Source of the DNA: an uncultured Candidatus Saccharibacteria bacterium
Lineage (GTDB): Bacteria; Patescibacteriota; Minisyncoccia; Phycocordibacterales; UBA918
Reading direction: 5' to 3'
DNA: 64,000 nucleotides
Assembly (NCBI GenBank): GCA_964350985.1
Contig: CAYGLK010000002.1
Coordinates: 382-64,381 of the forward strand
The notes beneath the pieces are model-generated. The model made no database searches. It had not been told where the DNA came from and saw nothing but the letters and a program-made list of their open reading frames with translations. Position 1 is the stretch's first letter; each line of letters opens with the position of its first letter. Shown in pieces: positions 32,516-55,362 of the stretch. The position numbers were made by a program, and so were the translations under genes.

Positions 32516-32560
32516 GCCTGGAGGAGCAAATGCTCAATCATGCTCCTCCAGGCGGTTTTT
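32516..32560 (+). terminator. Intrinsic terminator (gcctggaggagc...gctcctccaggc + GGTTTTT)
   Basis: 12-bp perfect stem and T-run on plus strand. Confidence 0.65.
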
Positions 32561-32569
32561 ATATAAAAT

Positions 32570-32598
32570 GGCTTTCTGGGACGATATTAGAAAAATTT
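32570..32598. repeat. Island repeat copy R13 (degenerate: ggctttctgggacgatattagaaaaattt)
   Basis: Core GGGACGAT-TTAGAA conserved; ends at the NADAR gene stop codon. Confidence 0.6.
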
Positions 32599-33073: not shown

Positions 33074-33077
33074 GATA

Positions 33078-33163
33078 AAAGTATATCAAAGTTCCGTCGT
33101 ACCTGTTTGGCATAGATTTTAGAGTCGAAAATAAGTCTCAAATATCATACTGGCTGTTAAAGG
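33078..33163. repeat. Island repeat copy R12 (extended, degenerate: aagtatatcaaagttccgtcgtacc...gaaaataagtctcaaatatcatactggctgttaaagg)
   Basis: About 80% identical over about 85 bp to the extended copy upstream of the MBL gene (43966-44040). Confidence 0.7.
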
Positions 33164-33293
33164 TTTGGCCAGGATTCGTTTATTTAAATAAAGAGCTTTT
33201 GAAATCAGATACTGTAGCAGTTTTAATATTTTGTACACGACCTATCACCACCGCACCTAAAGATAAATCCTGCAGCGACAAAATTTTTACTTA

Positions 33294-34586
33294 TTATTTC
33301 ACCTTAACTCCCTCCGGAATACTGTTTGGATCAACAATAAATCCTTGCATGTCCTTACGTCCAATAATTACCGGGAAGCGTAGATGTCCCCGCGGTGTGT
33401 ATGTTGCAATTGAATCTATCTTTTTACCCTTCATTTTGAATTGCAAAGATACAGTTTGGCGTCTCTGACGCCCGCTACCTGAACGAACGCTTACAAATTT
33501 ATTACGCTCGTCTAGACCCAACTCTTCTACTAAGTCACTATCTAGTGACGTACGATAAGCACCTGTATCCACCTTGGCTCGTACCGTCTTCTTTTTCTTA
33601 TTGCCATAAATAGTAATCTTCTCTATGACCGATAGTATATTAGAAGGAATATCTTCAACGGTTTCAAGCGATACTTCCGCAAAAAGTTTTTTTGCCAATT
33701 CAACCCCTCGCTCAATTTTTTGAACCTTAAGATCAGCTATTCTTTCTAAACGAGTACGTAATGAAGCTTGGTTTGCTACTTGTATTCCTAATCCGGGTCG
33801 AGCATTTATTTCAAGCACCAACGGACCATGCTGTTGATCAAGTACAACATCAATACCCGCAAAGCCTAGTCTTGAGCATAGCTGAGCCTTTACTGCTACT
33901 TCTAAAATCTTGTCCCAATCAGGAATTTTGATGCCACGCACTTTTGTTTTAGTTCCTGGAATGTATTCTGTGACCTGTTGATTGACTACTCCATAAGTAG
34001 TAATACCTGTTCTCATGTCTATACCCACACCTAGAGCACCTAAGTGTAGGTTGGCTTTACCATCAGAAAAGATAGTCGGTAGACGCATCATCGCCATCAC
34101 CGGTACGCCGTTACAGACAATCAAACGAACATCTGGCACGCCTTTACTTATGTATTTTTTGAAAAAAGGATGTGGAATTATGCGATCTTCTATAAACGCA
34201 GCGTCTGGAAGATTATTAAGCGAATGCTCACCGTCAAGCGTACTAAAAATGATTCGCTCGAGCTCCGCTATATCTATGTCATTATTTTTTTCAGTACTTC
34301 CATGAGTACCATTCCACTTGCGCACCACTGTAATACCACGCCCACCATAACCGCGTGCTGGTTTCACTGCAAAATCCTTCGGTAGCAAAGACCAATCAAA
34401 ATTACGAACATCTTGCAATGAACGAAATACTGCCAAAATCGCATTGGTAGGAACATCATTTTCTAGTAAACGCTTTTTCGTCAATAACTTATCATCAGCT
34501 ACTAGTTTTTGACTACGTCGATTGAACTGTCTTATATATAAGTAATTGCGAGCATTCATGCCCAGCATTGAAGTGCTGATAGCCAT
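33294..34586 (-). CDS. RimK-related ATP-grasp (alpha-L-glutamate-ligase-like) enzyme fused to a C-terminal retropepsin-like aspartic protease domain
   Basis: ATP-grasp core motifs (PDVRLIVCNG, GPLVLEINARPGL); C-terminal RAKVDTGAYRTSLD (D-T-G aspartyl protease signature). Confidence 0.75.
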   Translation of the reverse strand: MAISTSMLGMNARNYLYIRQFNRRSQKLVADDKLLTKKRLLENDVPTNAILAVFRSLQDVRNFDWSLLPKDFAVKPARGYGGRGITVVRKWNGTHGSTEKNNDIDIAELERIIFSTLDGEHSLNNLPDAAFIEDRIIPHPFFKKYISKGVPDVRLIVCNGVPVMAMMRLPTIFSDGKANLHLGALGVGIDMRTGITTYGVVNQQVTEYIPGTKTKVRGIKIPDWDKILEVAVKAQLCSRLGFAGIDVVLDQQHGPLVLEINARPGLGIQVANQASLRTRLERIADLKVQKIERGVELAKKLFAEVSLETVEDIPSNILSVIEKITIYGNKKKKTVRAKVDTGAYRTSLDSDLVEELGLDERNKFVSVRSGSGRQRRQTVSLQFKMKGKKIDSIATYTPRGHLRFPVIIGRKDMQGFIVDPNSIPEGVKVK

Positions 34587-34590
34587 ACAA

Positions 34591-35565
34591 CTAATCTAGT
34601 GAAACTTTATTAAATCGAAACACTTCAAACAATCGTAGACCAAAGTAGCGGCCAACTAGAATATTTGCAGGTATGACAAGGAACAATACTTCTGGATACA
34701 AAATAATAAAATTCTGGATTGCAATACTTGTAGCCGCTAAATAGCCGACCAAACCAATTACTATTGTTGTAGCGGTGATCATAAATGTTTCTGAACTACT
34801 CTTGTGTAATTGTACTGATACGATCATGTCTCCAAGTAACATCAAAACCAAAATTGGGAAAATTGATACGCTCAAAATACGTTCAAAATCAAGTACAACT
34901 CCTACAGACAAGGCTGCAAACACAGCTAGTGATAGAAGTACCATCGACAACGAGCGCTTTGGATAAAACATGATTTTTAATTTTGTGAGACTTATTTTAG
35001 ATATATACGAAGCAATAAGAATTGCACTCAATACCAGTAATCCAACAGTTATACCGACTGCAACCAGTGCAAACGCTAAGGCAATAGGGACCAACATATC
35101 CAAAGTCGGAAGACCAACTACTGTCCGAACAAAACTAACAAGTAAAGCTAGGAACGGGGTGAGCAGGATCAAAAAAATTGTATTTGCTGGTACACCAGCT
35201 CTCACAGATTCTTGTACCCAAAAAGCCATACCATTAAACCACCCCAATTTATCAACCAAACGATCTTCAAACAGTGAGATGATTGCTACTTTTTCTGACA
35301 ACTCTTCTGGCTGGGTAATATCTTTTGATTGTACCAGTTCACGCTGAGAAATAATGCCAGCCGCGGTTGTAGAAGGTGTTGCATCTTCTGCGTTAACCGT
35401 GCCGTTAGTAGTTGTAGTGGTACTCGTTGCCACAAGTGACTCCTCAGATTGAAACTGAAAATTTGAATTAGAACCCTGAGCAAGTCCAGCCTGCGGCACA
35501 CTAAAAAACGTCGTACAAACTACAACTAGTGTGAGCATCAAACATTTGTTATATATAAATTTCAT
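34591..35565 (-). CDS. Seven-TM membrane protein of the inactive-transglutaminase-fused-7TM family
   Basis: Secreted N-terminal segment then about 7 TM helices; genomic context (between QEGLA and RimK-related ATP-grasp genes) matches the described triad. Confidence 0.5.
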   Translation of the reverse strand: MKFIYNKCLMLTLVVVCTTFFSVPQAGLAQGSNSNFQFQSEESLVATSTTTTTNGTVNAEDATPSTTAAGIISQRELVQSKDITQPEELSEKVAIISLFEDRLVDKLGWFNGMAFWVQESVRAGVPANTIFLILLTPFLALLVSFVRTVVGLPTLDMLVPIALAFALVAVGITVGLLVLSAILIASYISKISLTKLKIMFYPKRSLSMVLLSLAVFAALSVGVVLDFERILSVSIFPILVLMLLGDMIVSVQLHKSSSETFMITATTIVIGLVGYLAATSIAIQNFIILYPEVLFLVIPANILVGRYFGLRLFEVFRFNKVSLD

Positions 35566-35566
35566 A

Positions 35567-36850
35567 TTACCAATCAGTTAAAATTTCTAAGGCTTTCAAT
35601 GCTTTGATGTGGCGAGGCAGCAACGGGTTATATTTACCTAGAAAAAGTTTAGGATAGATATGTGGCTTTTCAGACAATAGATGCCAAATCTCAATATTAC
35701 CTTCCATATAGACTATATCTCTTGTGTAAATAAAGCCAGTGCTTTGTCCAGTGGTACCACGAAAGATACGTACGCACACATCCCAAGCAGAGCGTAAGGG
35801 CACTAATTTTTGATGCTCTTTGCTCACGGTCGCTAAAATTGTGTAGTAATCAACCATCACACTAAACACTGATCTAAAGTCTCGAGGTGTACCGTCCATA
35901 CCCACAGCAAGACTAGCGGCCATATAGCGATCAAAACCATAAAATTCGGTTGCTCCCTCACACTGTTGTTGAACGTATGAGGCAACGCCTTCTTCTCCTT
36001 GCAGATAAGAATCCAAACCAATTTGAAGTAAATGTAGGTTACTCCCGGCTCCACAATACGAACGCCGCACATGCACTCCGATCTCGTGTGTTGCCAATGC
36101 CTTAACTTGCAGCTTAGTCAGTAACTTAGGACGAGCAAGTAACTTTTCCTTACCAGGGATGTAGATAATCCTTTGTGGTGTACTCACTGCAAAATTGACT
36201 CTTTTGTTTTCTTGGTCTACTTGGATTTTCCACCCTGTTATCTCATACTCATCGAGAGTTTCTCTAAAAACAGCCACAACTTCATCAGGAGTCTGAATAA
36301 AAACATCATCGTGTACTAATGGAGGTAATATATCCGAACTGATATCTACTCCAGTTACGTTAATTTTAGAAAAGATTTTTTTAAGATGTCGAACTTCAAC
36401 TAAATGCTCTGGGCCCGCTAGTTTAGTCAGATTCATCACCTTTTTGGCGATATACGCAAAGTATTTATTCTTTGGTTTACCGTGCAACTGACAGCTTAGA
36501 CGATAAAATTCTTTATCGTCACTATTCATCGAAGCATTAAACATACCAACTCTGTTAATTTGATTTGTTATTTTTGCCTCATAGAGCTTTTTAACGACCT
36601 CGTTCTCTTCAGTTTTAACAATCTCTTGTAAAAGCAATTCTAAGCTTTTACAAGAAAGCGGCTCATTCATTTTTGATTCAGTATTGCTTGTGTATGAAAA
36701 AAGAGGGTTTTCTATTTCATTATCCAAAAAACGCTCACGCTCTTCGTTGTCGATTTTCATACGACTCTGGATCCAGTCCACATCGTCACTATAGCTCTTA
36801 TTTATGGCTACTAGCTGGCTAAACCAAGATCCATCGTAAATTTGTGCCAT
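35567..36850 (-). CDS. QEGLA-motif (DUF1704) family protein
   Basis: HEIGVHVRRS and LQGEEGVASYV (QEG.A-like) motifs; first gene of the three-gene module. Confidence 0.5.
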   Translation of the reverse strand: MAQIYDGSWFSQLVAINKSYSDDVDWIQSRMKIDNEERERFLDNEIENPLFSYTSNTESKMNEPLSCKSLELLLQEIVKTEENEVVKKLYEAKITNQINRVGMFNASMNSDDKEFYRLSCQLHGKPKNKYFAYIAKKVMNLTKLAGPEHLVEVRHLKKIFSKINVTGVDISSDILPPLVHDDVFIQTPDEVVAVFRETLDEYEITGWKIQVDQENKRVNFAVSTPQRIIYIPGKEKLLARPKLLTKLQVKALATHEIGVHVRRSYCGAGSNLHLLQIGLDSYLQGEEGVASYVQQQCEGATEFYGFDRYMAASLAVGMDGTPRDFRSVFSVMVDYYTILATVSKEHQKLVPLRSAWDVCVRIFRGTTGQSTGFIYTRDIVYMEGNIEIWHLLSEKPHIYPKLFLGKYNPLLPRHIKALKALEILTDW

Positions 36851-36919
36851 ATTGGCTAAAACATTAGCATTAACGCCACAATTTGTACATTATCCAAGAG
36901 TGATAAATGAAGTGTTAAT

Positions 36920-36949
36920 GGCCGTCTGGGACGAAGTTAGAACTTTTTT
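36920..36949. repeat. Island repeat copy R11 (ggccgtctgggacgaagttagaacttttttt)
   Basis: 27/31 identity to core. Confidence 0.8.
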
Positions 36950-36981
36950 ACTCTATATTTAGTCAAATAAATCTCTATTGA

Positions 36982-37425
36982 TTACTTTTCTTCAAAAAAC
37001 TCTGAATATTGACTTCCTTGCAACATAGACTCTAGAGCCTCCTTCATAAACGGCACAAATTCAGATAGTCTCTCACCCACAGGAATCCACATTACTTCAC
37101 TGCACCTGTGTGGCTCGGTATTGACTGGATCTTGGTCACAACACTCAATTTTGAAATAATAATGAGTTCTATCATGTCTACCCTCAACATTTCGGTTGTA
37201 CTGTATGTGAACAAAACTAATATCGTCGACTGAAACATCGATACCAACCTCTTCTTTTGCCTCACGCACTGCTGCTTCTCGAGGGGTTTCATCAGGGTCA
37301 ATGTGTCCAGCTGGCATATTGAGGCGACCATCACAATATCCAGTATTGCAACGACGACCTACAAACCATTTACCATCACACTCAAGTAACAAACAGACAG
37401 CAGGAATGATTACATGTTTTTCCAT
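36982..37425 (-). CDS. NUDIX hydrolase; cassette 6
   Basis: Canonical Nudix box GHIDPDETPREAAVREAKEEVGI. Confidence 0.85.
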   Translation of the reverse strand: MEKHVIIPAVCLLLECDGKWFVGRRCNTGYCDGRLNMPAGHIDPDETPREAAVREAKEEVGIDVSVDDISFVHIQYNRNVEGRHDRTHYYFKIECCDQDPVNTEPHRCSEVMWIPVGERLSEFVPFMKEALESMLQGSQYSEFFEEK

Positions 37426-37475
37426 ACATCAAAGTATATCAAAAGTTCAAAAGTGAAGGTATGAAGAATATGTTT

Positions 37476-37530
37476 ATAAATAAGCCTCAAATATCAAGCT
37501 GGCTGTGTGGGACGATGTTAGAACTTTTTT
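37476..37530. repeat. Island repeat copy R10 (ataaataagcctcaaatatcaagctggctgtgtgggacgatgttagaactttttt)
   Basis: Full extended copy. Confidence 0.9.
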
Positions 37531-37532
37531 GA

Positions 37533-37916
37533 TCAATATATAAGAAAAGCCGTACTCCAGGTGGCTTTCCTGTCATACGACTTACAATTCTTACAATGCT
37601 CAACCAGGTAATCATAAACCCGCATCCCATTCCATGGGAAATTATCAAGTTTCTGGGGAATATTTGGAAGATCTGGAGGAACAACGAAGATTACATCCAG
37701 ATCTCCTTCATCATCAGATTTTTGGATACGAATTCGATCTCCCTCCTTCACTTCGTACCAGTCTGGAAAATAACTTGATTTTTCGTTTCGTTTGAGAATT
37801 TTGTCTGATATTAGCCCGAGTTCTCTGAGCTCCGATTGCTCAATCTTTCTACCAGTACAAGTTGGTTGAAAAACAAAATCGGAACAACCAACATAGGTCT
37901 CCAGCAAAATAATCAT
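37533..37916 (-). CDS. Hypothetical protein; cassette 7
   Basis: 127-aa ORF ending 2 nt from the R10 repeat; no recognisable family. Confidence 0.4.
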   Translation of the reverse strand: MIILLETYVGCSDFVFQPTCTGRKIEQSELRELGLISDKILKRNEKSSYFPDWYEVKEGDRIRIQKSDDEGDLDVIFVVPPDLPNIPQKLDNFPWNGMRVYDYLVEHCKNCKSYDRKATWSTAFLIY

Positions 37917-37967
37917 TGTCGTTATCTCTTGTTAACTGACAGGATAATACAACAGAATATAGTTGAC

Positions 37968-38009
37968 GTCAATACTGCTGGCTGTATGGGACGATGTTAG
38001 AACTTTTTT
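37968..38009. repeat. Island repeat copy R9 (gtcaatactgctggctgtatgggacgatgttagaactttttta)
   Basis: Full core; contains the TAA stop of the upstream gene (gTTAgaac). Confidence 0.9.
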
Positions 38010-38419
38010 AGTAGTTCAAGATCACCATTAAGAACTAAGGGATCCATCGCTTCGATCTCATCAGTATAACCACTCTGCGGGGCTGGGTTTAAAATCGCCA
38101 AATCCTTACCCAATACGTGACCAAACCCCATTTCTAAAAATGTATTAGCGCCGATGTAGTTTTGAATACCATTCTTTTCAGTATTTACTACTAGTACAAT
38201 GTCATATTCTTTTATTTTTTCGTAGTAGCCTTTTATCAAATCCAGCTCTTTTTTATCTACCGCACGTTCTGTCTCAGTAACATGAGTGAAGTCATTGTCT
38301 CGAAACTTTTTCACACCATGAGGAATTTCTACCGTGAATCCCATGGCTTCAAGCTCACTTTGAATTTTTAATACAGTGCCTGACGCAGAGATTGAACAAC
38401 AAATTATAATTGATTTCAT
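37997..38419 (-). CDS. Nucleoside 2-deoxyribosyltransferase-like (flavodoxin-fold) protein; cassette 8
   Basis: MKSIIICCSISASG...YDIVLVVNTEKNG...GANTFLEMGFGHVLGKDLAILNP pattern of NDT-like proteins; start set to Met 38419 because the first Met (38428) overlaps the TATAAT -10. Confidence 0.5.
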   Translation of the reverse strand: MKSIIICCSISASGTVLKIQSELEAMGFTVEIPHGVKKFRDNDFTHVTETERAVDKKELDLIKGYYEKIKEYDIVLVVNTEKNGIQNYIGANTFLEMGFGHVLGKDLAILNPAPQSGYTDEIEAMDPLVLNGDLELLKKF

Positions 38420-38475
38420 AATGTGCATTATAACAAAAGTTCTATAGTCCTTGACGGGTACTAAATTTCAGATTT

Positions 38476-38528
38476 AAAAATAAGCCTCAAAAATGTTGCT
38501 GGCTGTATGGGACGATGTTAGAACTTTT
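38476..38528. repeat. Island repeat copy R8 (aaaaataagcctcaaaaatgttgctggctgtatgggacgatgttagaactttt)
   Basis: Full extended copy. Confidence 0.9.
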
Positions 38529-38988
38529 ATAGATACAATATCTTAATTCCAAGACGCTCTGCCTGCTCGTGCTCCCACTTAGAGCCGAAAGATGTTTGCC
38601 AATCTGGTAAAAAATAAAACTCGGAAATGTGTCCAGATTCAAAAAGAGGTAAATAAAACTGATTTAATAAATCCATATCATATCCAGCCTGCTCTGTGTT
38701 CGATCTAATATTCTGTATTGGAACCTCAAAAGGTATTTGATTAAAAATTTTAACTCCCTCCTTTGATAAATTTTCTATAGTAACTTCAAAAAGCTCCAAA
38801 TTTTTCTCAACTGAACCTAATCCTCCAGTTGATATAGGGCCGCAAACTTGTATGACAGGTTGTGGCATTCGCTCAATAACAGACATCGCTATTTTTTGGA
38901 GGTCATAATAATTTCTAGCGTTTTCTAAAAGAATATAATCTCCTGGTTCCCAGTATTTGTAATTCATAGCTAGCTCTTTTTCTTCCAT
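38527..38988 (-). CDS. DUF4406 / nucleoside-deoxyribosyltransferase-like protein; cassette 9 (second gene)
   Basis: VIQVCGPISTGG...YFLPDWQTSFGSKWEHEQAERLGIKI fits DUF4406-like pattern; overlaps upstream MTase gene by 19 nt. Confidence 0.45.
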   Translation of the reverse strand: MEEKELAMNYKYWEPGDYILLENARNYYDLQKIAMSVIERMPQPVIQVCGPISTGGLGSVEKNLELFEVTIENLSKEGVKIFNQIPFEVPIQNIRSNTEQAGYDMDLLNQFYLPLFESGHISEFYFLPDWQTSFGSKWEHEQAERLGIKILYL

Positions 38989-39644
38989 TTCAATAATAAG
39001 AAACCTGGGTATGTATCTACTATTTGTTCAGCTGCACTATCAAAGCGCTCGTCATAAGCTTCTAATATAAAATGATCTAACATAAAGGAAGAGAAGTACT
39101 CTTTTAAGGTATGTGTAGGCTCTTCAAAAGTTAGCTTTCCATCAAAGCAAATAGACTCCACAATCTCCTTTTCAAAATAATCTTTTGGTTGTTTCTTCTT
39201 TTCAATAAACTGCCTTAATGGATGAGCTACTAATAGTACAAAATAACCCCCCGGCTTTAACACACGAAATACCTCATTCCATATGGGTTCCAAATCTGAA
39301 GCAGTCTGCAGTGCATATTTTGAAAATACATAATCAAAACTATCAGATTCTGATGGAACATCCTCAAACAAACCATATTTAAAATCTAATTCTGGATAAC
39401 TCTCTTTTGCCTGCATCAGTAATTCTCTTGAGGCATCGATACCAAGAACATAATCGGCACCTAATTGTGAGAGCAAATTAGTTTCAAAACCATTACCAGA
39501 TCCAAGATCCAAGATTTTTCTTCCCGAAAGATCCTCAGGTAGAACTTCATTATATGCTGCACGACTATCTACATTACCTAGCTCTAGAGCATCAGAAAAT
39601 TCAGTCGCAATGTTATCGTACTGATGACTTAAGCTTTTATTCAT
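38970..39644 (-). CDS. Class I SAM-dependent methyltransferase; cassette 9 (first gene)
   Basis: Motif I ILDLGSGNG, motif II/III spacing; leaderless promoter TGGTATACT upstream. Confidence 0.8.
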   Translation of the reverse strand: MNKSLSHQYDNIATEFSDALELGNVDSRAAYNEVLPEDLSGRKILDLGSGNGFETNLLSQLGADYVLGIDASRELLMQAKESYPELDFKYGLFEDVPSESDSFDYVFSKYALQTASDLEPIWNEVFRVLKPGGYFVLLVAHPLRQFIEKKKQPKDYFEKEIVESICFDGKLTFEEPTHTLKEYFSSFMLDHFILEAYDERFDSAAEQIVDTYPGFLLLKWKKKS

Positions 39645-39715
39645 AAAAGTAAGTATACCAAAAACAAGACTGTCCTCAAACTTTTATACGTTTTAAAATA
39701 TAGCTGCTTTAGCGA

Positions 39716-39748
39716 GCTGGCTGTCTGGGACGATGTTAGAACTTTTTT
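39716..39748. repeat. Island repeat copy R7 (gctggctgtctgggacgatgttagaactttttt)
   Basis: Full core. Confidence 0.9.
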
Positions 39749-39876
39749 GATATAAAAAGCGGTTGCGCGCCGTTACATTATGTAAATACACGTAAATGAA
39801 ACTCTGCTATCAAAAGTAGAAAACCGCTCCCCCCATGCGGTTTTCATGGTTAGAGCGGTTAGAGTTGTGGTTGATC

Positions 39877-40791
39877 TCATCGAATTGTCAGGGCATTGTC
39901 GATGGAAAGCACGAGAGCTCCCATCTGTTGCTTGCCTTCAATCAACAGCTCCTTCAATTGATTGAGTTCGTCCATGCTCGCTCCATTGATTGCTTTCGCA
40001 AACTCTGGACCCCGCATCTCGAGAAGAACATCCATATCTGCACTCAAACGTTGGAAGAACCGTTCGGCATGACGACGCACATCACGAGGCCTTCCCGTGC
40101 GTTTCTCGCCAGTAATACTCTCCACACACTTGCGTGCATGAGCAAGCCGAAAACGAAGTGGAACCCTGAGCATTTGCTGATACACCACCAGCTGCTGTTC
40201 CGTCGAAAGAGCCGAAAGTACGACAGCTTCACCAAAACGAAGAAGTTCCTTTTCGTTGGTTTCGGGATGCATCTTTTGCTGAAGTTCGGGTACAAGCCGC
40301 TGCAGCGAAAGGTATTGGTAGACCCAAGAAGGCGACTTGTCCAAACCCTCAGCTAGCAGTGCTACCTTTTCATGTCGATCCACCTGGTATTGCAACGCGC
40401 AAGATATTTCCATGTGCGTTTGGCCTTCCCGGTGGTGATTGGAAATCAAGGAAAGCAAATGTTGCTCGCGATCTTCAGGATTTCCCTCCTCAACACAAAT
40501 CCGGATGGTCTGAAGACCGGCAATCTGGTGAGCCAGCCAACGACGTTCGCCGTCGATGATCTCATAATCACAACCATCTTCGGTGGTGGACAGTTTTCTG
40601 ACCTGAATCGGCGTACGCTGGCCATGCATGACGATTGAACGAGCAAGGCTGCGAAGCGCTGATTCTTTGAAATAGGTTCGTGGCTGATTCTTGTACCGAC
40701 GAACCGATGACACAGGTACACGTAATTCGTGTTGGCTTTGAACCTCTGGTGTGCCGTCCATATTCCCTCCCCAATAACTCTCAAGGCCCAA
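39877..40791 (-). CDS. ParB/Sulfiredoxin N-terminal-domain (ParB-like nuclease) protein; cassette 10, GC-rich (about 50%)
   Basis: YEIIDGERRWLAHQIAG is the ParB-Nter DGxxR motif; markedly higher GC and different codon usage from neighbours. Confidence 0.6.
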   Translation of the reverse strand: MGLESYWGGNMDGTPEVQSQHELRVPVSSVRRYKNQPRTYFKESALRSLARSIVMHGQRTPIQVRKLSTTEDGCDYEIIDGERRWLAHQIAGLQTIRICVEEGNPEDREQHLLSLISNHHREGQTHMEISCALQYQVDRHEKVALLAEGLDKSPSWVYQYLSLQRLVPELQQKMHPETNEKELLRFGEAVVLSALSTEQQLVVYQQMLRVPLRFRLAHARKCVESITGEKRTGRPRDVRRHAERFFQRLSADMDVLLEMRGPEFAKAINGASMDELNQLKELLIEGKQQMGALVLSIDNALTIR

Positions 40792-40838
40792 TGCCTGAGT
40801 TGCGGACCATTAAATACGTGTTCTTCGATTATGTCAAT

Positions 40839-40871
40839 GCTGGCTGTATGGGACGATGTTAGAACTTTTTT
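40839..40871. repeat. Island repeat copy R6 (gctggctgtatgggacgatgttagaactttttt)
   Basis: Full core; HAD gene stop TAA overlaps its T-run. Confidence 0.9.
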
Positions 40872-41469
40872 AACAATCAACTTTCAGTAGCCGCAATTCA
40901 GTTATGAGATTATCATAGTCAGTAAATAAGATTGATTTAATTTCTAATTTTTTTGCAGCGTCAGTATTTTTAACCTGATCATCAATAAAGACCACCTCTT
41001 CAGGAATTAATCCCGTAATAGTTAAGGCTCTATCAAAATAGAGAGGGTCAGGCTTTTTCAAACCTTCCTTAAAAGACAATATCTCATAATCAAAGTATTC
41101 ATAAAGACCCATTTCAATATCTGCCCCATATCTTTGTTCCGTTAAATTGGTTAGTGCGGCTAATACATAATTTTTCTTAAGTTGCTTTAGCAAGGAAAGT
41201 ACTTGAGCATCCACAGATGACAATCTTACAGTTTCTTCACTCCACACATTTAGCATATCCTCTACTCTGAACTTGTTGTTAATCCCAAAAGCACAAAGCA
41301 TGTGTTCTGAAGTGACAGCTCCTGTCAAAAGATCATTTAAATGTTCTTCATGGTAAGCAGAGACTATATCAGCTGAGATTCCGACTCGCTCTGAAAATAG
41401 TTGGTATATTTTCGAAAAATCACCATGTGTAATTACTTTATGAATATCAAAAAAAATACCTTTAATCAT
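40870..41469 (-). CDS. HAD-superfamily hydrolase; cassette 11 (second gene). Start at Met 41469
   Basis: IKGIFFDIHKV (motif I variant) and VVFIDDQVKN (motif IV). Confidence 0.6.
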   Translation of the reverse strand: MIKGIFFDIHKVITHGDFSKIYQLFSERVGISADIVSAYHEEHLNDLLTGAVTSEHMLCAFGINNKFRVEDMLNVWSEETVRLSSVDAQVLSLLKQLKKNYVLAALTNLTEQRYGADIEMGLYEYFDYEILSFKEGLKKPDPLYFDRALTITGLIPEEVVFIDDQVKNTDAAKKLEIKSILFTDYDNLITELRLLKVDC

Positions 41470-41525
41470 GGCGCAAGTATAACAAAACCACCCCAGCGAG
41501 AAAACTATCTCCTCGCATAGGGTGG

Positions 41526-42065
41526 TCACAAATACCGCGTCAAAATTTCAACAACTTCATCCATTTTCTTGTCGGACACATCAACCACGGCGACAACTGG
41601 TATATTACCTTGGACGAGCGCTGGATTACCCCACTCATCGGATATTTTCTTGTAGACACCAATGTCGTGTGGTTTACCCAAAGAACCCCTTTCGACGCAA
41701 AGAAATCGCTGTCTGCGAACTTCTTCTCTACAGGTTAAGTTAACGACCTGCAGCTCGACTTCCAGCTTTAGACACAGGTCACTCAGCCAGAGCAGGTAAT
41801 CCTTACCAATATGAGCATGGTTTGAATGCGTCATGATGAGTGTCTGCACAGAGCCAGATTCCGCTGCACTACGAATAATGACCTCCCTGAGACTGTAAAG
41901 CAACTCAGTGGAAGCACTTCCGAGCCAAGCATCTCCATAGATTGATTTGACAATGTTGGTGGTCAAGTGGTTGTGCACCAGAGGATTGTTGGTTTTTTCT
42001 GAAAGAGCTGCACCAATCGTCCTCTTACCTATCCCGCAACCGCCGCTTATCAAAAATAGCTTCAC
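41526..42065 (-). CDS. P-loop NTPase, small nucleoside/nucleotide-kinase-like; cassette 11 (first gene)
   Basis: Walker A ISGGCGIGKRT at N-terminus, 179 aa. Confidence 0.6.
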   Translation of the reverse strand: MKLFLISGGCGIGKRTIGAALSEKTNNPLVHNHLTTNIVKSIYGDAWLGSASTELLYSLREVIIRSAAESGSVQTLIMTHSNHAHIGKDYLLWLSDLCLKLEVELQVVNLTCREEVRRQRFLCVERGSLGKPHDIGVYKKISDEWGNPALVQGNIPVVAVVDVSDKKMDEVVEILTRYL

Positions 42066-42134
42066 GGATTTCCCCCTTTAAGTAATTGATGTGTTTTTTA
42101 TCTATAACACATATTTAGTATTCTGTCACTAGTT

Positions 42135-42167
42135 GCTGGCTGTATGGGACGATGTTGGAACTTTTTT
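42135..42167. repeat. Island repeat copy R5 (gctggctgtatgggacgatgttggaactttttt)
   Basis: Core with one substitution. Confidence 0.9.
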
Positions 42168-42245
42168 GACACAAAAACAGCCCGCCGAAACGAGTCCATA
42201 GGACTGTCTTTGCGAGCTTGGTAGATCATACAATTGACACTCAAA

Positions 42246-42770
42246 TTACAGTTTGACACCGACATATTGGCCACTGCATACAAAGCCGGGACCTAAAAAA
42301 TGGTCATGCAGATTCAGGGCGTCGTCGATGAATTCACCAGTGTTACTGTCGTACCGCAACATCCCACCGTATGTGCCATTTGGCTTGTCCCCTCGGCTGC
42401 CGAAGCAGCAGAAGTAGTTGACCGAGCCCTCCCTCATTTCAGGCTGGTGTTCGGTCAAATAAGCACGGCATTCGCGCAGGTCGGCATACCGATACCCTAG
42501 GCTAGGAAGCGTCGGATCGCCGTGTTTAGGGGATACGATAGCCATTTCCAGCGTTCGCGCGTTGTAGACCTCAGGAATACTGAATGTGACACTACGTCCC
42601 CAATCACCTTCCCCCGATACGACTTGTGCTGGAGTGTCCGGTATCTCGACAGTCTGAGGATTGATGAAATCATCATTTCCAAAGATAGCGGTCCCTACCC
42701 AGAGAACGATTCCGGCAAGACCGCCGAACACAACCGTTCCAGCGAAAACATTTGCAAAAGTACTGGCCAT
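42246..42770 (-). CDS. Hypothetical membrane-anchored protein; cassette 12, GC-rich
   Basis: 174-aa ORF, N-terminal TM, GC about 52%. Confidence 0.35.
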   Translation of the reverse strand: MASTFANVFAGTVVFGGLAGIVLWVGTAIFGNDDFINPQTVEIPDTPAQVVSGEGDWGRSVTFSIPEVYNARTLEMAIVSPKHGDPTLPSLGYRYADLRECRAYLTEHQPEMREGSVNYFCCFGSRGDKPNGTYGGMLRYDSNTGEFIDDALNLHDHFLGPGFVCSGQYVGVKL

Positions 42771-42845
42771 CTTTAAACTCCGTTAGGTTGAGAACGAGAT
42801 TGTTCAAGTAAAACAATAACACTGTAAAACATGTATGTCAATACT

Positions 42846-42876
42846 GCTGGCTGTCTGGGACGATGTTAGAACTTTT
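42846..42876. repeat. Island repeat copy R4 (gctggctgtctgggacgatgttagaactttt)
   Basis: Full core. Confidence 0.9.
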
Positions 42877-42939
42877 CTATCAATATAAAAGGGCCCCGTT
42901 TTCACAGGACCCTCCTTTTCTCTCTGTATCCGCCGAGCG

Positions 42940-43218
42940 TCAGATGTAAACGAAGTACAGAATGATAGTCAGAACCGACAGACTGAATGAGATTGCCATG
43001 GACACCATTCCGCTCCAGCTCTTCCTGAGAAAGAACTCTGTGGCAAATGCAGCCTGCACGACCGCAAAGATGGCGAACATTTGCCACGCCACGCCAGCAA
43101 CGATACCGGTACGGATGATTGCGACGGGTTGAGGAATCAGGGCGATGATATTTACAAAGCCCATCAACCACATCACCTTGTTCCAGTGGAACTTTTGGAT
43201 GAACTCTTCACGGGTCAC
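42940..43218 (-). CDS. Small 3-TM PQ-loop (SemiSWEET-like) membrane protein; cassette 13, GC-rich
   Basis: 92 aa, three TM helices, LIPQPVAIIRTG resembles the PQ motif of TM1. Confidence 0.35.
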   Translation of the reverse strand: MTREEFIQKFHWNKVMWLMGFVNIIALIPQPVAIIRTGIVAGVAWQMFAIFAVVQAAFATEFFLRKSWSGMVSMAISFSLSVLTIILYFVYI

Positions 43219-43282
43219 GAGACTCTCCTTATTTAGCCCTGAATTATTAATATAAGAGCATATTTTTTATGCTTTGTAAAGT

Positions 43283-43315
43283 GCTGGCTGTATGGGACGA
43301 TGTTAGAACAGTTTT
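43283..43315. repeat. Island repeat copy R3 (gctggctgtatgggacgatgttagaacagtttt)
   Basis: Core with 2 substitutions. Confidence 0.85.
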
Positions 43316-43317
43316 AA

Positions 43318-43959
43318 CTAGAAATCTTTAGTCTCTCCATTACCTAACCTAACAAAATTAATACCCTTGGAACTTAACTGATTCTCAAATAGACCATATA
43401 TTAGCGCAATTCCATCTTCATTTAGCAACCAATCGTGTACCGGGAATGTTGTTTTAGGATTTACTCGCAAAGCGTAAGAAATAGCATCAGAAGATTTACA
43501 CCAGGGACCAGCTACAGGTAAGGCTAATACCTGAACCTCTTTACCTGGTTCTGTATATGCATCTCCTGGATAGAAGAGTTTTTTAGAAATAAAGTAACCT
43601 GTATTTTGCACCAAACCATATTCTTCAAATATTTCTGCGTGCTTACCATCATAGGCTTCTATAGAAACCCCATCTACGGCTTCTTCAGACCTCCCTTCCA
43701 GTACTTGGAAATTAATACCCAACCCGCTTAGAATTTTTCCAACACTACTATTTGTGACAATCCTTACTTTGGGATTATTTTTTACAATCTCTTTAATAGA
43801 CTCACTGTGCAGATGGTCTGTGTGTTCATGAGTAATTAGAACCAAATCAATATTCATTAACTTATTTTGAGAAACACTAAATTTTCCCGGGTCAGTTAAA
43901 ATCCTCTTACCGTCAACCTCTATAAGAAGACAGCACTGTCCAAATTTTGTAATTTTCAT
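43318..43959 (-). CDS. MBL-fold metallo-hydrolase; cassette 14. Start at Met 43959 (track ORF reads through repeat R2)
   Basis: LVLITHEHTDH (HxHxDH) motif; leaderless promoter TGGTATACT-tttaata-ATG. Confidence 0.75.
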   Translation of the reverse strand: MKITKFGQCCLLIEVDGKRILTDPGKFSVSQNKLMNIDLVLITHEHTDHLHSESIKEIVKNNPKVRIVTNSSVGKILSGLGINFQVLEGRSEEAVDGVSIEAYDGKHAEIFEEYGLVQNTGYFISKKLFYPGDAYTEPGKEVQVLALPVAGPWCKSSDAISYALRVNPKTTFPVHDWLLNEDGIALIYGLFENQLSSKGINFVRLGNGETKDF

Positions 43960-44014
43960 TATTAAAAGTATACCAAAGTTCCGCCGTACCCGTCCGGTAT
44001 AGAATTTAGGTGTT

Positions 44015-44070
44015 GAAAAATAAGCATCAAATCTCGAGCTGGCTGTCTGGGACGATATTAGAACTTTTTT
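44015..44070. repeat. Island repeat copy R2 (gaaaaataagcatcaaatctcgagctggctgtctgggacgatattagaactttttt); extended conserved region starts about 43966
   Basis: Full extended copy. Confidence 0.9.
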
Positions 44071-44071
44071 G

Positions 44072-44443
44072 TCATTTCCGAACGTTACCACTACCTAGAT
44101 GGAAGTGTAACTGCGCCACCTCCTGTCGGCTTCCACCATTAATCACAATTGTGTAGTCAGTCTCCTGCCAGCCATTATCTTTGATAATTTCCTGAGCCAC
44201 TTTGTATACCTCTGCCACGTACTCAAAGTCATTAGGTTGAAGAGCGGAGATATTTTTAATTGCCTTCTTAGGTACGATTAAAATATGATTTTCCCAGTAT
44301 GGTTTGGGGTGCCAAAATGCTAATACTTTTTCTGTCTCTTGGATTCGTTTCACTGGTAGCAACTTTGAAAAATTGCCGAATGCAATACCTACGATAAGTT
44401 CTCCTAATGGTGACTTTGCTAAAGCTAAAAGTGCTTTTTTCAT
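44072..44443 (-). CDS. HIT-family (histidine triad) nucleotide hydrolase/transferase; cassette 15
   Basis: AQLHFHLGSG histidine triad; 123 aa. Confidence 0.75.
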   Translation of the reverse strand: MKKALLALAKSPLGELIVGIAFGNFSKLLPVKRIQETEKVLAFWHPKPYWENHILIVPKKAIKNISALQPNDFEYVAEVYKVAQEIIKDNGWQETDYTIVINGGSRQEVAQLHFHLGSGNVRK

Positions 44444-44484
44444 AGCAATAGTATACCAAAAGTTCTAAATCCCTTTTTAATGTT

Positions 44485-44538
44485 GAAAAATAAGCTCCAA
44501 ATGTGTTGCTGGCTGCATGGGACGATGTTAGAACTTTT
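44485..44538. repeat. Island repeat copy R1 (gaaaaataagctccaaatgtgttgctggctgcatgggacgatgttagaactttt)
   Basis: Full extended copy; flank tgtgttgctg matches tRNA-Gln 3' flank. Confidence 0.9.
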
Positions 44539-44542
44539 ATAA

Positions 44543-45181
44543 CTACAAAACCATCTTCGCGAATATTCTAATCCATTTAATTTCAGCTCTGCCGTGAACG
44601 TCTTCTTCATTTACCACCTCATCCACCCTGAAACCAGTTTCCTCTAACAAACCCGTTAATTCTTCACTCTTATAGTAGCGAAAGAATCTATCGTGATTTG
44701 ATAACTTATCAGATACAATTTCAGTTTTATTACTACCTAATTGTTCTTTCACATAGATATAAACCCATCCATGTGCTTTAAGTACCCTCTTAAACTCTCT
44801 CACGGCATTCCTTACATCATCAAATGTTTCCAGATGTACTAATGACGCATGCGCCCAAACACCATCGAAGGTCTCATTGGGAAATGGTAACTTAATAAAA
44901 TTTCCATTTATAAATTCAATTTCCGGGTGTAATTTTTTTGCTACTTTAATTAGTCCTGTAGATATATCAATGCCAGTCACTTGAGCTCCAAAGGAAGCTA
45001 GGGTTTCTGAATCTCTTCCGTCTCCACAACCGACATCAAGAATTCTTGGTGTATCTTTAGATATTTTATCCAAGAAACTTTTTGCAGTGTCATTAAATTT
45101 TTTATCTCTAGTATCTAGAGAATATTTATCAGCATTGTTGTCGTACCAGTCAATTGTTTCTTTGAGTCCAGAGACTTTCAT
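44543..45181 (-). CDS. Class I SAM-dependent methyltransferase; cassette 16 (adjacent to tRNA-Gln)
   Basis: Motif I ILDVGCGDGRD; about 210 aa. Confidence 0.8.
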   Translation of the reverse strand: MKVSGLKETIDWYDNNADKYSLDTRDKKFNDTAKSFLDKISKDTPRILDVGCGDGRDSETLASFGAQVTGIDISTGLIKVAKKLHPEIEFINGNFIKLPFPNETFDGVWAHASLVHLETFDDVRNAVREFKRVLKAHGWVYIYVKEQLGSNKTEIVSDKLSNHDRFFRYYKSEELTGLLEETGFRVDEVVNEEDVHGRAEIKWIRIFAKMVL

Positions 45182-45186
45182 AATTG

Positions 45187-45249
45187 AAAGTATATCAAAC
45201 CTGAGACTCGAACCAAATTAATGTTGCTAAATATAGCTAAATTGTGTTG
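45187..45249. repeat. Island repeat copy R0: partial tRNA-like fragment (cctgagactcgaacc) plus flank, directly abutting the genuine tRNA-Gln 3' end
   Basis: gagactcgaacc mirrors gggactcgaacc of the adjacent tRNA; aaattaatgttgcta resembles aaattgtgttgctg. Confidence 0.6.
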
Positions 45250-45320
45250 CTGCCGGACAGGGACTCGAACCCCGATAGACGGCACCAAAAACCGTAGTCC
45301 TACCATTAGACGATCCGGCA
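45250..45320 (-). tRNA. tRNA-Gln (anticodon UUG)
   Basis: Cloverleaf: acceptor UGCCGGA/UCCGGCA with U1-A72, discriminator G73, anticodon loop UUUUGGU, T-loop TTCGAGT; 71 nt, no encoded CCA. Confidence 0.85.
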
Positions 45321-51950: not shown

Positions 51951-52724
51951 TTAATTAGACTCTTCGATTCTTTTTACATCAACTCCAGCTTCAGTCAGTG
52001 ATCCTTTCACAGTAACCCTCATGGTTTCAAAAAGTACTTCATCTGTACAAACCTTTTCTTCACCATCCTTTAGAATACAGTTACTCTCCCCACTTAAGAA
52101 TAGTGGTGCAGTATGTCCCATAACTCCGTTTTGTTCAAAAACTAAGTGCCAATATTGAGAATCAAGAGGTGCTGGTAAACTATCTTTCATTAAGAATCCT
52201 TCTCGGTCAAAACTAAACTCACCGACATCTGGGGCTTGTTCGCCAGATCCACAAGAAATATCTTTAATTAACCAAAAACCTTCTGCTCTCTTATCTAGAT
52301 CAACAACTACTTGTGTTGCAAGGGTGTTTTCTTTTGGAGTAATAAGAAGTTGTGCAGCTTTCTCATTTTCAAATATAACCTTTACTCTAAGTTTTTCAGG
52401 TACTTCATACTGACAAAGAATTGGATCTTTCTCATTTGTTCTAAAGTCATTTTCAGCATCAGCTATCTTTTGATTTAAATCTTTACTAAAGGCTGCTGTT
52501 GGTACTAACTTTGCAGCATAAGGGTCAGTTGTTGTTGATCGCCTCGCCTCCATCCACACTTCATAAAAGTCCAAAACAATACCTCGGGAATCCCCTTCCA
52601 CTCCCGGACTATCATCTATAGTAATTCCACTGTCAGTTTTTTTATCAGATAAAGATGCCCAAGCTACAACCAAAGCAATTGCTAAAAGCAGCAAGGCCGG
52701 TATTAAAATTTTACGAATATTCAT
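51951..52724 (-). CDS. Secreted hypothetical protein
   Basis: N-terminal signal/TM, 257 aa. Confidence 0.4.
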   Translation of the reverse strand: MNIRKILIPALLLLAIALVVAWASLSDKKTDSGITIDDSPGVEGDSRGIVLDFYEVWMEARRSTTTDPYAAKLVPTAAFSKDLNQKIADAENDFRTNEKDPILCQYEVPEKLRVKVIFENEKAAQLLITPKENTLATQVVVDLDKRAEGFWLIKDISCGSGEQAPDVGEFSFDREGFLMKDSLPAPLDSQYWHLVFEQNGVMGHTAPLFLSGESNCILKDGEEKVCTDEVLFETMRVTVKGSLTEAGVDVKRIEESN

Positions 52725-52930
52725 CGGTAAATAATATCATGAGAAAGTAATTTTAGGTATAGAAAAAGCCCAGAAGGGCTTTGTTTTCTTCTGGTCACGA
52801 GTTACTAACTATAATTGTTCGTCTCCGACTCCAATTATAGTAAGGACTCTCGACCCCGACTCATCTGTTGCAAGCAACATGATTCCGTCTCGCAGTTTGA
52901 TACAGAAGCAAAGCAGTTTGCTTCTTAAAA

Positions 52931-52967
52931 CAAAAAACAACAGTCAAAGACTGTTGTTTTTTGTTTT
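52931..52967. terminator. Intrinsic terminator (aaaacaacagtc-aaa-gactgttgtttt)
   Basis: 12-bp stem with flanking A/T runs, downstream of tRNA-Asp. Confidence 0.6.
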
Positions 52968-52976
52968 ATCTAACTG

Positions 52977-53050
52977 CGCGAGCGATGGGATTCGAACCCA
53001 CGGCCTCTTCCGTGACAGGGAAGCGCTCTAACCAGCTGAGCTACGCCCGC
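52977..53050 (-). tRNA. tRNA-Asp (anticodon GUC)
   Basis: GCGGGCG acceptor, anticodon loop CTGTCAC, T-loop TTCGAAT. Confidence 0.85.
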
Positions 53051-53144
53051 AATATTCCTCCCTACTTACAACTTAAGTAGTGGGAAGAGTATATACATTT
53101 TCAACAAAAAGGGCAACATCTAGATTAGTGGAGTTGTTTTATAT

Positions 53145-53450
53145 TGTGTCGACGGGAGGGAATGATCCTTACAGGATCAGTACACCTTTTGGCTATTTCT
53201 TTTCATATTTCAAGAAATAACACAAAAGCTCATCGTTCCCTCACGAACAGTTCATTGAACTGTTCTCCGTCTCCATTAAAAATACTTCGTAATTTGTGTC
53301 GACGGGAGGGAACGATCCTTACAGGATCAGTACACCTTTTGGCTATTTCTTTTCATACTTCAAGAAATAGCACAAAAGCTCATCGTTCCCTCACGAACAG
53401 TTTCCCAAACTGTTCTCCTTCGACACAGAAATAGCCTAAAGTCTTTTATT
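53145..53450. repeat. Tandem direct repeat, about 150-155 bp x 2 full units, each beginning with a copy of the tRNA-Met 3' end (tgtgtcgacgggagggaa(c/t)gatcc); a third copy is the 3' end of the intact tRNA-Met itself
   Basis: Units at about 53145-53294 and 53295-53449 are over 90% identical; each also contains a second T-arm-like segment (catcgttccctcacgaacag) and a palindrome (gaacagttcattgaactgttc / gaacagtttcccaaactgttc). Confidence 0.8.
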
Positions 53451-53451
53451 G

Positions 53452-53525
53452 TGTCGACGGGAGGGAACGATCCTCCGACCTTAGCTTTATGAGTGCTACG
53501 CTCTAACCAACTGAGCTACGCCGAC
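53452..53525 (-). tRNA. tRNA-Met/Ile2 (anticodon CAU; elongator type with G1-C72)
   Basis: GTCGGCG acceptor, anticodon loop CTCATAA, atypical T-loop ATCGTTC. Confidence 0.75.
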
Positions 53526-55289: not shown

Positions 55290-55362
55290 AGCGGGGTAGA
55301 GGAGTGGTACCTCGGGAGGCTCATAACCTCCAGACCCCGGTTCGAATCCGGGCCCCGCAACA
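55290..55362 (+). tRNA. Initiator tRNA-fMet (anticodon CAU)
   Basis: Unpaired 1:72 (A1xA72), A11:U24 pair, anticodon stem GGAGG/CCTCC with loop CTCATAA, T-loop TTCGAAT; preceded by TGTGTATACT -10 and followed by a terminator. Confidence 0.8.

Follow-up and report, generated by a model that had tools for sequence, protein, structure and literature searches.

What stands behind the tRNA(CAU) gene of a Candidatus Saccharibacteria genome, where the 3' end of the tRNA recurs twice in tandem? The locus lies in a stretch of 64,000 nt from an uncultured member of this lineage (contig CAYGLK010000002.1 of assembly GCA_964350985.1, positions 382 to 64,381), which was analysed at full length and is called the window in the following. 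In the original prediction, the two repeat units were regarded as empty scars resembling attachment (att) sites. This description was not borne out, as each unit contains a conserved, covarying module of about 110 nt together with an antisense arm. The units are members of a large element family, so far found only in Patescibacteria (Candidate Phyla Radiation, CPR) among the matches listed.

Anatomy and fold of the two units

Analysis with Tandem Repeats Finder yielded a period of 150, 1.8 copies, 93% matches and a score of 494 at 53144-53418. A self-repeat search of the window returned 128-nt copies at 53144-53271 and 53294-53421 with an identity of 93%. Both results support the predicted presence of two units of about 150 nt on the 3' side of the minus-strand tRNA(CAU) gene, which was called by both ARAGORN and Rfam at 53451/2-53525. 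The last 24 nt of the tRNA, GGATCGTTCCCTCCCGTCGACACA, occur in three minus-strand copies against a chance expectation of 0.00: at the tRNA end (53450-53473), at 53295-53318 without mismatches and at 53145-53168 with one mismatch. Hence, unit A (proximal) and unit B (distal) each end in the tRNA's last 24 nt, as had been stated. The spacer between the tRNA gene and unit A measures 23 nt (53428-53450) and is free of a terminator hairpin. The two units diverge at about 7% of positions and differ in their 5' segments and in the loops of helix P2.

In the orientation of the tRNA, the parts of a unit follow each other in the order acceptor-antisense strand, P2, T-loop/T-stem-antisense strand, P4, linker with P5 and 24-nt tRNA-end copy (Table 1). 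An invariant linker GGUGUAC (sequence GGUGUACU) joins P4 and P5, the latter being 5 bp in length. A second partial T-arm-like segment, noted before, is indeed present in each unit (53232-53245 and 53382-53395). Being the reverse complement of T-loop and T-stem, it constitutes the antisense arm. The T-loop AUCGUUC is non-palindromic, which means that the unit's motif GAACGAU is genuinely antisense rather than a T-arm duplicated in sense orientation. The perfect 10-bp palindrome GAACAGTTCA-T-TGAACTGTTC that had been assigned to each unit was found in unit B (53245-53265) but not in unit A, which has GAACAGTTT-CCC-AAACTGTTC with 9-bp arms at 53395-53415 in its place. Related P2 hairpins with compensatory U-A/C-G changes occur at three of the compared loci (L005, L008 and L020; L-numbers are labels of loci from CPR genomes and metagenome contigs). 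As the arms pair, a unit is predicted to fold like a miniature tRNA with an acceptor-like stem and an extended T stem, in which the core would replace the T-loop. The full-length core of about 200 nt consists of 'type-2' outer parts and a 'type-1' inner part, and the units in the window are inner-only derivatives of it. An open reading frame (ORF) of 96 aa at 53144-53434 overlaps this RNA-structured sequence and has no Pfam support (best E = 0.09), which fits its earlier interpretation as an artefact of the repeat.

For the core, RNAalifold predicted 21 pairs, 15 of which show double-sided compensatory changes. Paired cells make up 93.3%, while shuffles reach 70.2%. For covariation, the core scores 0.575 against 0.158 in shuffles, and 0 of 500 shuffles reached the observed score; a control with slid partners was only 42-58% paired. 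In an unbiased count, the ratio of G-U to A-C was 14:2 for P5 and 17:12 for P4; in the model-fitted alignment it was 71:36. These ratios point, if modestly, to selection of the fold as RNA, on the tRNA-sense strand. The fold may also be selected as single-stranded DNA.

The 3' end of the tRNA(CAU) in the window is identical in 27 species-representative genomes, all of which belong to Patescibacteria. Its T-loop is atypical (A54 and U58 instead of T54/A58) and conserved in the 27 CPR genomes, while the T-loop of the tRNA(CAU) in another genus (L174) reads UCCGAGU. The tRNA at 53452-53525 is either an elongator tRNA-Met or a tRNA-Ile2; a further tRNA(CAU) at 55290-55361 is initiator-like.

Family, host genes and turnover of the element

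The core motif AAGGTGTACNGNNNNTGTAAG, which is free of any tRNA sequence, was used for a metagenome search and matched at least 120 metagenome contigs. All metagenome counts of the family refer to the matches listed and are lower bounds. A covariance model designated R1 was built from 27 cores. It detected at least 111 cores in at least 100 metagenome contigs as well as cores in 15 of 27 CPR genome loci, with a total of at least 131 core copies in Patescibacteria genomes and metagenomes. In the window, R1 gave exactly two matches (82.5 and 81.3 bits), followed by a next best hit of 11.5 bits. In about 10 of the 27 genomes, tRNA-Met is followed by a homologous unit with the same arms and different hairpin sequences. 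The same core is found behind tRNA-Asp in L002, L015 and L018, where the arms match tRNA-Asp. Tandem cores are present at at least 12 loci on independent contigs, and arrays elsewhere combine different unit types.

Rfam 15 gave no match to the units at gathering or permissive thresholds (E ≤ 10) in the window, eight CPR loci, 18 metagenome loci and the long form from L025; on the same sequences it found tRNAs, RNase P and true group I introns only. No description of the family was found in Rfam 15 or in searches of open-access full-text papers. Viral contigs yielded no match to the tRNA-end motif and 19 matches to the core motif, which are noise according to R1 (about 20 bits). A blastn search of phage and plasmid collections returned no match to the unit.

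A same-strand tRNA gene lies at most 300 nt upstream of 58 of the 131 cores among the matches listed, and these genes represent at least 27 isoacceptor types and at least 18 amino acids. For a further 11 of the 131, a tRNA gene lies just downstream. The strand 3' of P5 reproduces the host tRNA sequence that begins at about position 52-58 and runs through to the tRNA end. The antisense arm is matched to the host as well, with a duplex energy of -27.7 kcal/mol for the cognate tRNA end compared to -16.3 kcal/mol for non-cognate ends (p ~ 1e-15). Where a genus has UCCGAGU as the T-loop of its tRNA-Met, GAACGAU in the arm is replaced by ACUCGGA. Most relatives feature a terminator-like hairpin between the tRNA and the antisense arm, and tRNA end, hairpin and arm form one long palindrome, which in L035 has perfect arms of 27 nt. 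The downstream tRNA-end copies are often degenerate, a qualitative observation, as the block alignment mis-registers at indels.

Comparison of orthologous sites revealed filled and empty states with precise junctions. In L010 and L025, tRNA-Met is directly followed by CAAAGCAAGATATTGCCC, which belongs to the tRNA-Asp promoter, whereas in L018 and in the window a unit and a 24-nt copy precede the same CAAAGCAAGATATTGCCC sequence. The orthologous site is empty in L011, too. Where relatives have the terminator hairpin, it arrives together with the unit. The proposed footprint of integration and excision at a tRNA 3' end is therefore retained as far as block insertions and deletions bounded by tRNA-end copies are concerned. 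An integrase system is not evident in the roughly 58 window ORFs screened, and the viral, phage and plasmid collections contain neither the tRNA-end motif nor the unit.

The close relatives L169 and L170, whose flanking gene is 90% identical to that of the window, differ from it at both tRNA genes. Behind tRNA-Met they have a single unit, which differs in its P2 and is type-2 in its interior, compared to two units in the window. Behind tRNA-Asp they carry a type-1 unit with its copy, which is precisely absent from the window, both sequences resuming at GTTAGATAAAAC. Further units are located where the window has an ORF of 257 aa. Since these tRNA-Asp-matched units in L169 replace the window's ORF, the spacer can be considered hypervariable. 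Variation of the unit across relatives had been named as a check on the prediction, and it was observed in both forms, as a single unit of another type (L169/L170) and as empty sites (L010, L011 and L025). Regarding the suspected active tRNA-targeting recombination system, the site does turn over between close relatives, but the window ORFs screened do not include a recombinase. L025 is syntenic with the window and carries long-form elements behind both tRNA-fMet and tRNA-Asp. About 186 nt are common to the two elements and differ by one substitution, while their arms and P2 differ and are tRNA-specific.

The core was also found at other positions. Partial tRNA copies that adjoin an intact gene carry it in their T-arm in L082 (Ile), L108 and L125 (both Gly) and L032 (Ala), the last with two pseudo-copies upstream of the tRNA gene; an intact tRNA was present beside every interrupted partial copy examined. 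Among protein-coding genes, it follows rplK with a duplicated rplK end and occurs upstream of msrA beside a duplicated gene end. A role as L1/L11 leader was considered for the cores after rplK (three contigs) and dropped, as rplA does not follow in L050. In L058, the core is placed between perfect 86-bp direct repeats of the 5' end of a kinase gene, with the 3' strand of P5 within the repeat. Direct repeats begin exactly at the 3' end of the core in L067 and L096, while most non-tRNA sites are without repeats. The flanking duplications vary from about 17 to 86 nt.

Other genes and introns were observed at these loci in relatives. LAGLIDADG homing-endonuclease genes recur specifically in the tRNA-Met/tRNA-Asp spacer of several CPR genomes (L007:4162-4839, L012, L019, L174:4568-5245 and L175), with a remnant at L008:130-276; the gene in L007 lies inside a type-2 element. 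Homing-endonuclease drive was rejected as a general engine, as tblastn found no LAGLIDADG gene near the cores in the at least 120 metagenome contigs. Group I introns were detected by Rfam at L011:2038-2260, L008:3472-3697 and L015:7337-7601, and the one in L011 seems to interrupt tRNA-Asp in the anticodon loop. In L169, a large serine recombinase of 581 aa with Resolvase and Recombinase domains is encoded at 1380-3125, just upstream of two NTP-transferase genes, a position that in the window is taken by tRNA-fMet and an ORF of 207 aa. The recombinase probably belongs to an integrated element unrelated to the units.

Readings of the units

We favour, with about as much doubt as confidence, the reading that the units are a selfish, non-autonomous structured insertion element propagating via its tRNA-derived arms. 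The selfishness, the recombination route and an enzyme acting in trans are what we infer beyond the observed anatomy and polymorphism. The non-coding element of 135-150 nt would live at the T-arm and 3' end of tRNA genes, less often at other conserved gene ends, and would be gained, lost and swapped as a DNA block made up of the unit and the gene-end copy. Exchange could take place via recombination, or via template switching at hairpins, by use of the tRNA-derived arms and the universal T-loop. Alternatively, an enzyme may mobilise the element in trans. Units would be lost by recombination between direct repeats. Selection would favour events that spare the tRNA, an intact copy of the gene being retained in all cases, and would keep the fold of the element as RNA or single-stranded DNA.

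Small, hairpin-rich, non-coding and multi-copy elements of mosaic and often tandem structure are known as repetitive extragenic palindromes and their composites (REP, BIME and REPIN), as miniature inverted-repeat transposable elements (MITEs) and as Rickettsia palindromic elements. They are located just 3' of genes or terminators, or inside genes of reduced genomes, and are presumed to be selfish and mobilised in trans. The units resemble REP, BIME, REPIN and MITE sequences in their location and in their short, non-coding, hairpin-forming, multi-copy extragenic form. However, the terminal repeats of those elements are a fixed family sequence, whereas the arms of the units differ and match the host tRNA. 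Their target-site duplications are short and fixed, those of the units variable with about 17-86 nt. Neither a REP-associated (RAYT) nor an insertion sequence (IS) transposase was found within the 64-kb window.

Several points weigh against the selfish-element reading. No mobilising enzyme was identified, and no excised or circular form was seen. The pattern of presence and absence could result from loss between direct repeats instead of gain, and spacer alleles could be exchanged when the flanking tRNA genes, which are nearly invariant, undergo homologous recombination. No tRNA gene lies within 300 nt of 48 of the 131 cores among the matches listed, most of which are without a surviving flanking repeat. 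In 32 of 34 units, the antisense arm forms the stronger pairing with the real tRNA and the weaker one with the downstream copy of its own unit, although the fixed window of this comparison underestimates copies with an inserted hairpin. A pure 'cis fold' model does not predict this preference. The strand signal is modest (14:2 in P5, 17:12 in P4, 71:36 model-fitted), and strong covariation together with a tRNA-Met-specific scaffold kept across genera could mean a function as host RNA. In addition, there is only a single usable assembly of this organism.

The closer match of the arm to the real tRNA than to the copy in its own unit would suit a guide-type mechanism. It is a tentative, rather unlikely proposal that the antisense arm is a programmable guide and that the units represent a new class of guide-bearing, non-autonomous CPR mobile elements. 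If this were true, the scaffold, as RNA or folded single-stranded DNA, would pair with a conserved gene end, mostly the stretch from the T-loop to the 3' end of a tRNA. The pairing would direct insertion beside the gene and leave a copy of the target, either through a trans-acting enzyme or through host replication and repair. In a variant of this proposal, the mini-tRNA scaffold may serve as a decoy 'landing pad' that absorbs invaders targeting the T-arm.

Targeting by pairing is known from group II introns, which use exon- and intron-binding sites (EBS/IBS) and of which class C inserts after terminators, from the guide tetranucleotides of IS200/IS605 and from the bridge RNA of IS110. The units share with these elements a structured scaffold, a variable segment complementary to the target and the placement after a terminator-like hairpin. 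They differ in having neither ribozyme domains nor an associated protein nor an Rfam match; their complementary arm is 20+ nt long and accompanied by a sense copy, and its role as guide is putative. The context of TIGR and IS110 systems has been described (PMC12045711). TIGR arrays consist of units of about 36 nt with two 8-12-nt repeats and two spacers of about 9 nt, located beside a Tas gene with a Nop domain (PMC12045711). Assignment of the units to such an array was rejected, given the period of 150 nt compared to about 36 nt and a window without a Nop/Tas gene.

A host-functional structured RNA, transcribed with tRNA-Met and acting in cis or trans on tRNA biology, is likewise a doubtful explanation. 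As possible roles, the units could act as a mini-tRNA decoy or as a processing module for RNase P, RNase Z or the CCA-adding enzyme. They could also insulate the transcription units of tRNA-Met and tRNA-Asp from each other, or regulate or sponge the tRNA 3' end in antisense. Such roles would agree with the strong covariation and stable fold, with the excess of G-U over A-C on the tRNA-sense strand and with the window having no terminator between tRNA-Met and the units. They would also agree with the complementarity that the antisense arm keeps to the real tRNA, with the occurrence of a tRNA-Met-specific scaffold in several genera and with the position of P2 at the acceptor/T-stem junction, like a tRNA-like three-way shape. 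In most relatives, however, an intrinsic-terminator-like hairpin that arrives with the unit separates it from the tRNA, and most copies should therefore be poorly transcribed. The units are also dispensable, judged from the empty sites in L010, L011 and L025, and their type and copy number vary among close relatives. Finally, the same core is present at protein-gene ends and in decaying pseudo-tRNAs, and downstream copies are often degenerate.

An acceptor-like helix (P1, in both units) with the 3' strand of a real tRNA is shared with the tRNA-like domain of tmRNA, with YrlA and with plant mitochondrial t-elements. The units would have no tRNA elbow, because the T-loop nucleotides are predicted to be paired with the antisense strand in P3, with the core in the place of the loop. 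Only real tRNAs, and not the units, match the tRNA, tmRNA and YrlA models of Rfam. A primer-binding site for mature tRNA was considered as well and discarded, as the arm in the window complements the genomic trailer (…ACA) and not CCA.

Quite unlikely, in our view, is an origin of the units as tandem tRNA pseudogenes, with a small T-arm-specific, intron-like element having invaded the T-arm and with the D and anticodon arms having later collapsed to P2. The arms of the unit would then be the acceptor and T stems of the pseudogene itself, an explanation that overlaps in part with the selfish element. The core within the T-arm of partial tRNA copies (L082, L108, L125 and L032) is consistent with it. 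The 5' strand of P1, GUCGAAG, resembles the 5' acceptor strand of the tRNA, GUCGGCG, and P2 sits where the D and anticodon arms would be. On the other hand, the upstream arm complements the T-loop itself and the trailer beyond the tRNA end, unlike a tRNA 5' half. The P2 consensus is common to units of different tRNAs and unrelated to the anticodon arm of the host, and an interrupted copy was never seen as the sole copy. No Rfam intron family matches, while true group I introns nearby were detected. More precisely, no ribozyme core of a group I or II intron was found by Rfam at E ≤ 10 over the units or the 200-nt long form, and a comparable search did detect true group I introns in L008, L011 and L015. 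Interruption of a functional gene copy, as expected for a self-splicing intron, was not observed; an intact tRNA lies beside each partial copy examined.

Footprints of an integrase, i.e. duplications of the attL/attR type with deleted cargo, like cis-mobilisable remnants of integrative elements, are very unlikely to explain the units. The geometry is that of classic att sites, with direct repeats running from the T-loop to the tRNA 3' end. This direct repeat of the 3' part is shared with the tRNA att duplications of phages, integrative and conjugative elements and islands, as are the intact tRNA, possible tandem accretion and block loss between repeats. Further support comes from the tandem nature of the array, from the neighbouring tRNA-Gln locus with 14 cassette boundaries resembling the tRNA-Gln 3' end and from the large serine recombinase a few kb away in L169. 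The units differ from such duplications in being non-coding, about 150 nt long and without an integrase (in the window) or an attP-bearing replicon. No integrase was found among about 58 window ORFs screened, and neither the att-like motif nor the unit turned up in viral, phage or plasmid collections, the viral core matches being noise. The interior is conserved and covarying instead of decayed cargo, and integration leaves the antisense arm, an extra copy, unexplained. One core family is present behind at least 27 isoacceptors and at protein genes, a pattern that a single sequence-specific integrase would not yield. Thus, of the features of att duplications, neither a recombinase beside the array, nor attP or phage cargo, nor one lineage per tRNA was found. 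Serine recombinases, moreover, are not known to generate 24-nt duplications, which counts against this explanation.

Integron attC arrays share with the units the anchorage at a single site and an imperfect palindrome per junction that can fold in single-stranded DNA; in the units, the palindrome of tRNA-end copy, loop and antisense arm could mimic a duplex target. An integron 'cassette' is a gene, whereas the units contain an RNA-like structured module. Neither intI nor attI nor Pc was found, the neighbours being an NTP-transferase gene and tRNA-Asp, and the window contains no integrase. The attC inverse-core/core sites RYYYAAC ... GTTRRRY and an R/L core-site consensus are absent; the unit boundaries are the tRNA end GTCGACACA and its complement.

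Plain local tandem duplication or an assembly artefact is scarcely credible: the copies are adjacent with a period of 150 nt and the Logan assembly breaks at the repeat, but assembly duplication is unlikely given 93% identity rather than 100% (about 7% unit divergence), different 5' segments and P2 loops, comparable tandem arrays in at least 12 independent contigs, homologous units in at least 100 independent contigs and arrays elsewhere that mix unit types. The Logan short-read assembly of the same sample (L001 and L168; ERR3534985), the only other assembly of the organism, breaks on both sides of the repeat, namely inside unit A and about 97 nt upstream of the 257-aa ORF.

Surroundings in the window and significance

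The neighbourhood is that of a core chromosome, with two NTP-transferase genes, gatA, ligA, pyrG, prfB, a photolyase gene and the RNase P RNA. The latter (bacterial type A, 7185-7530) scored 105 bits compared to a gathering cut-off of 100, which fits a divergent CPR lineage. A Pfam search of about 58 window ORFs, several of which are unannotated, smaller ORFs being unscanned, found no recombinase, integrase, transposase, reverse transcriptase or homing endonuclease. The 257-aa ORF (51951-52724) is secreted-looking and has no Pfam family. Type-2 modules like the one behind tRNA-Asp (Table 1) are also present in L002, L015, L018 and L025.

Table 1 Features of the tRNA(CAU) locus and of the adjacent tRNA-Asp region, with positions in the window
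Feature	Position	Strand	Basis
Intact tRNA(CAU) 'Met35', host gene of the copied 3' end	53452-53525	-	ARAGORN; Rfam tRNA 59.9 bits
Unit A (proximal), type-1 element	53295-53427	-	lone fold P1-P5, -60.3 kcal/mol, z = -7.9
Unit A, P1 5' strand UGUGUCGAAGG, antisense to acceptor 3' strand and trailer CCGUCGACACA	53417-53427	-	inverted repeat; fold
Unit A, P2 hairpin GAACAGUU-UGGGA-AACUGUUC, inserted into the antisense arm at the exact acceptor/T-stem junction	53395-53415	-	fold
Unit A, P3 5' strand GUGAGGGAACGAU, antisense to T-loop and T-stem 3' strand AUCGUUCCCUCCC	53382-53394	-	inverted repeats; fold
Unit A, conserved core	53314-53383	-	R1 match 82.5 bits; covariation
Unit A, P4 hairpin	53335-53379	-	part of core
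Unit A, P5 hairpin, loop UGUAA	53314-53328	-	part of core
Unit A, downstream arm (IR-R), exact copy of tRNA nt ~52-76, GGATCGTTCCCTCCCGTCGACACA	53295-53318	-	0 mismatches
Unit B (distal), type-1 element	53145-53275	-	lone fold -53.0 kcal/mol, z = -6.9; R1 81.3 bits
Unit B, P1 5' strand UGGAGACGG, as in L018	53267-53275	-	
Unit B, P2	53245-53265	-	
Unit B, P3 5' strand	53232-53244	-	
Unit B, core	53164-53233	-	R1
Unit B, IR-R	53145-53168	-	1 mismatch
Promoter-like TTGCCC-17-TATACT for tRNA-Asp, conserved right flank of the insertion site	53088-53116	-	sequence; 3' of unit B
tRNA-Asp(GUC), next gene downstream	52977-53050	-	ARAGORN, Rfam
Related elements behind tRNA-Asp, without tRNA-Asp copy	52793-52968	-	inverted repeat; same block in L169
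AT-rich perfect 20-bp terminator hairpin behind tRNA-Asp	52926-52968	-	
P2-type hairpin GAAGCAAACUGCUUUGCUUC behind tRNA-Asp	52905-52924	-	
'Type-2' (outer-domain only) unit ending CUCGUGACC, behind tRNA-Asp	52793-52892	-	

A second array in the window is located downstream of tRNA-Gln(UUG) (31635-45320, minus strand) and features 14 copies of a repeat of about 34-50 nt, AAAAAAGTTCTAACATCGTCCCAnACAGCCAGCA. The repeat is a diverged T-arm/acceptor 3' end of tRNA-Gln with a 5-nt insertion in the T-loop. Each pair of copies encloses one small gene or operon, which has a TTTGGTATACT-like promoter of its own. The cargo includes, among others, two NUDIX genes, NADAR, an ATP-grasp/7TM/MATCAP operon, two methyltransferases, ParB_N, HAD, MBL and HIT. 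The array has neither a recombinase nor an antisense arm nor the core, and its layout is integron-like and anchored on the tRNA. The likeness between both loci that had been pointed out thus extends to the theme of tRNA 3'-end copies, but not to the antisense arm or the core, which the Gln repeats do not have. The ParB_N-domain protein is encoded at 39877-40791 within this cargo; no Tas/Nop gene or TIGR array was seen. Genes similar to parB occur in Tas operons (PMC12045711).

Taken together, the locus is a recombinationally active site, and its units are neither empty scars nor evident integrase products. They belong to a large family of at least 131 tRNA-matched structured elements with host-rewritten arms and turnover between close relatives. 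Patescibacteria comprise a large share of bacterial diversity and have tiny genomes, usually with a single copy of each tRNA gene. The elements fragment CPR assemblies next to tRNA genes. If they are selfish, they show how mobile DNA colonises essential single-copy RNA genes without killing them, and they would also explain assembly breaks and spurious ORFs beside CPR tRNAs. If the arm is a guide, the family would be a new natural example of DNA targeting programmed by base pairing. If the units are functional for the host, they would constitute a new class of tRNA-linked RNA. The covariance model and the arm rule make each of these readings directly testable.

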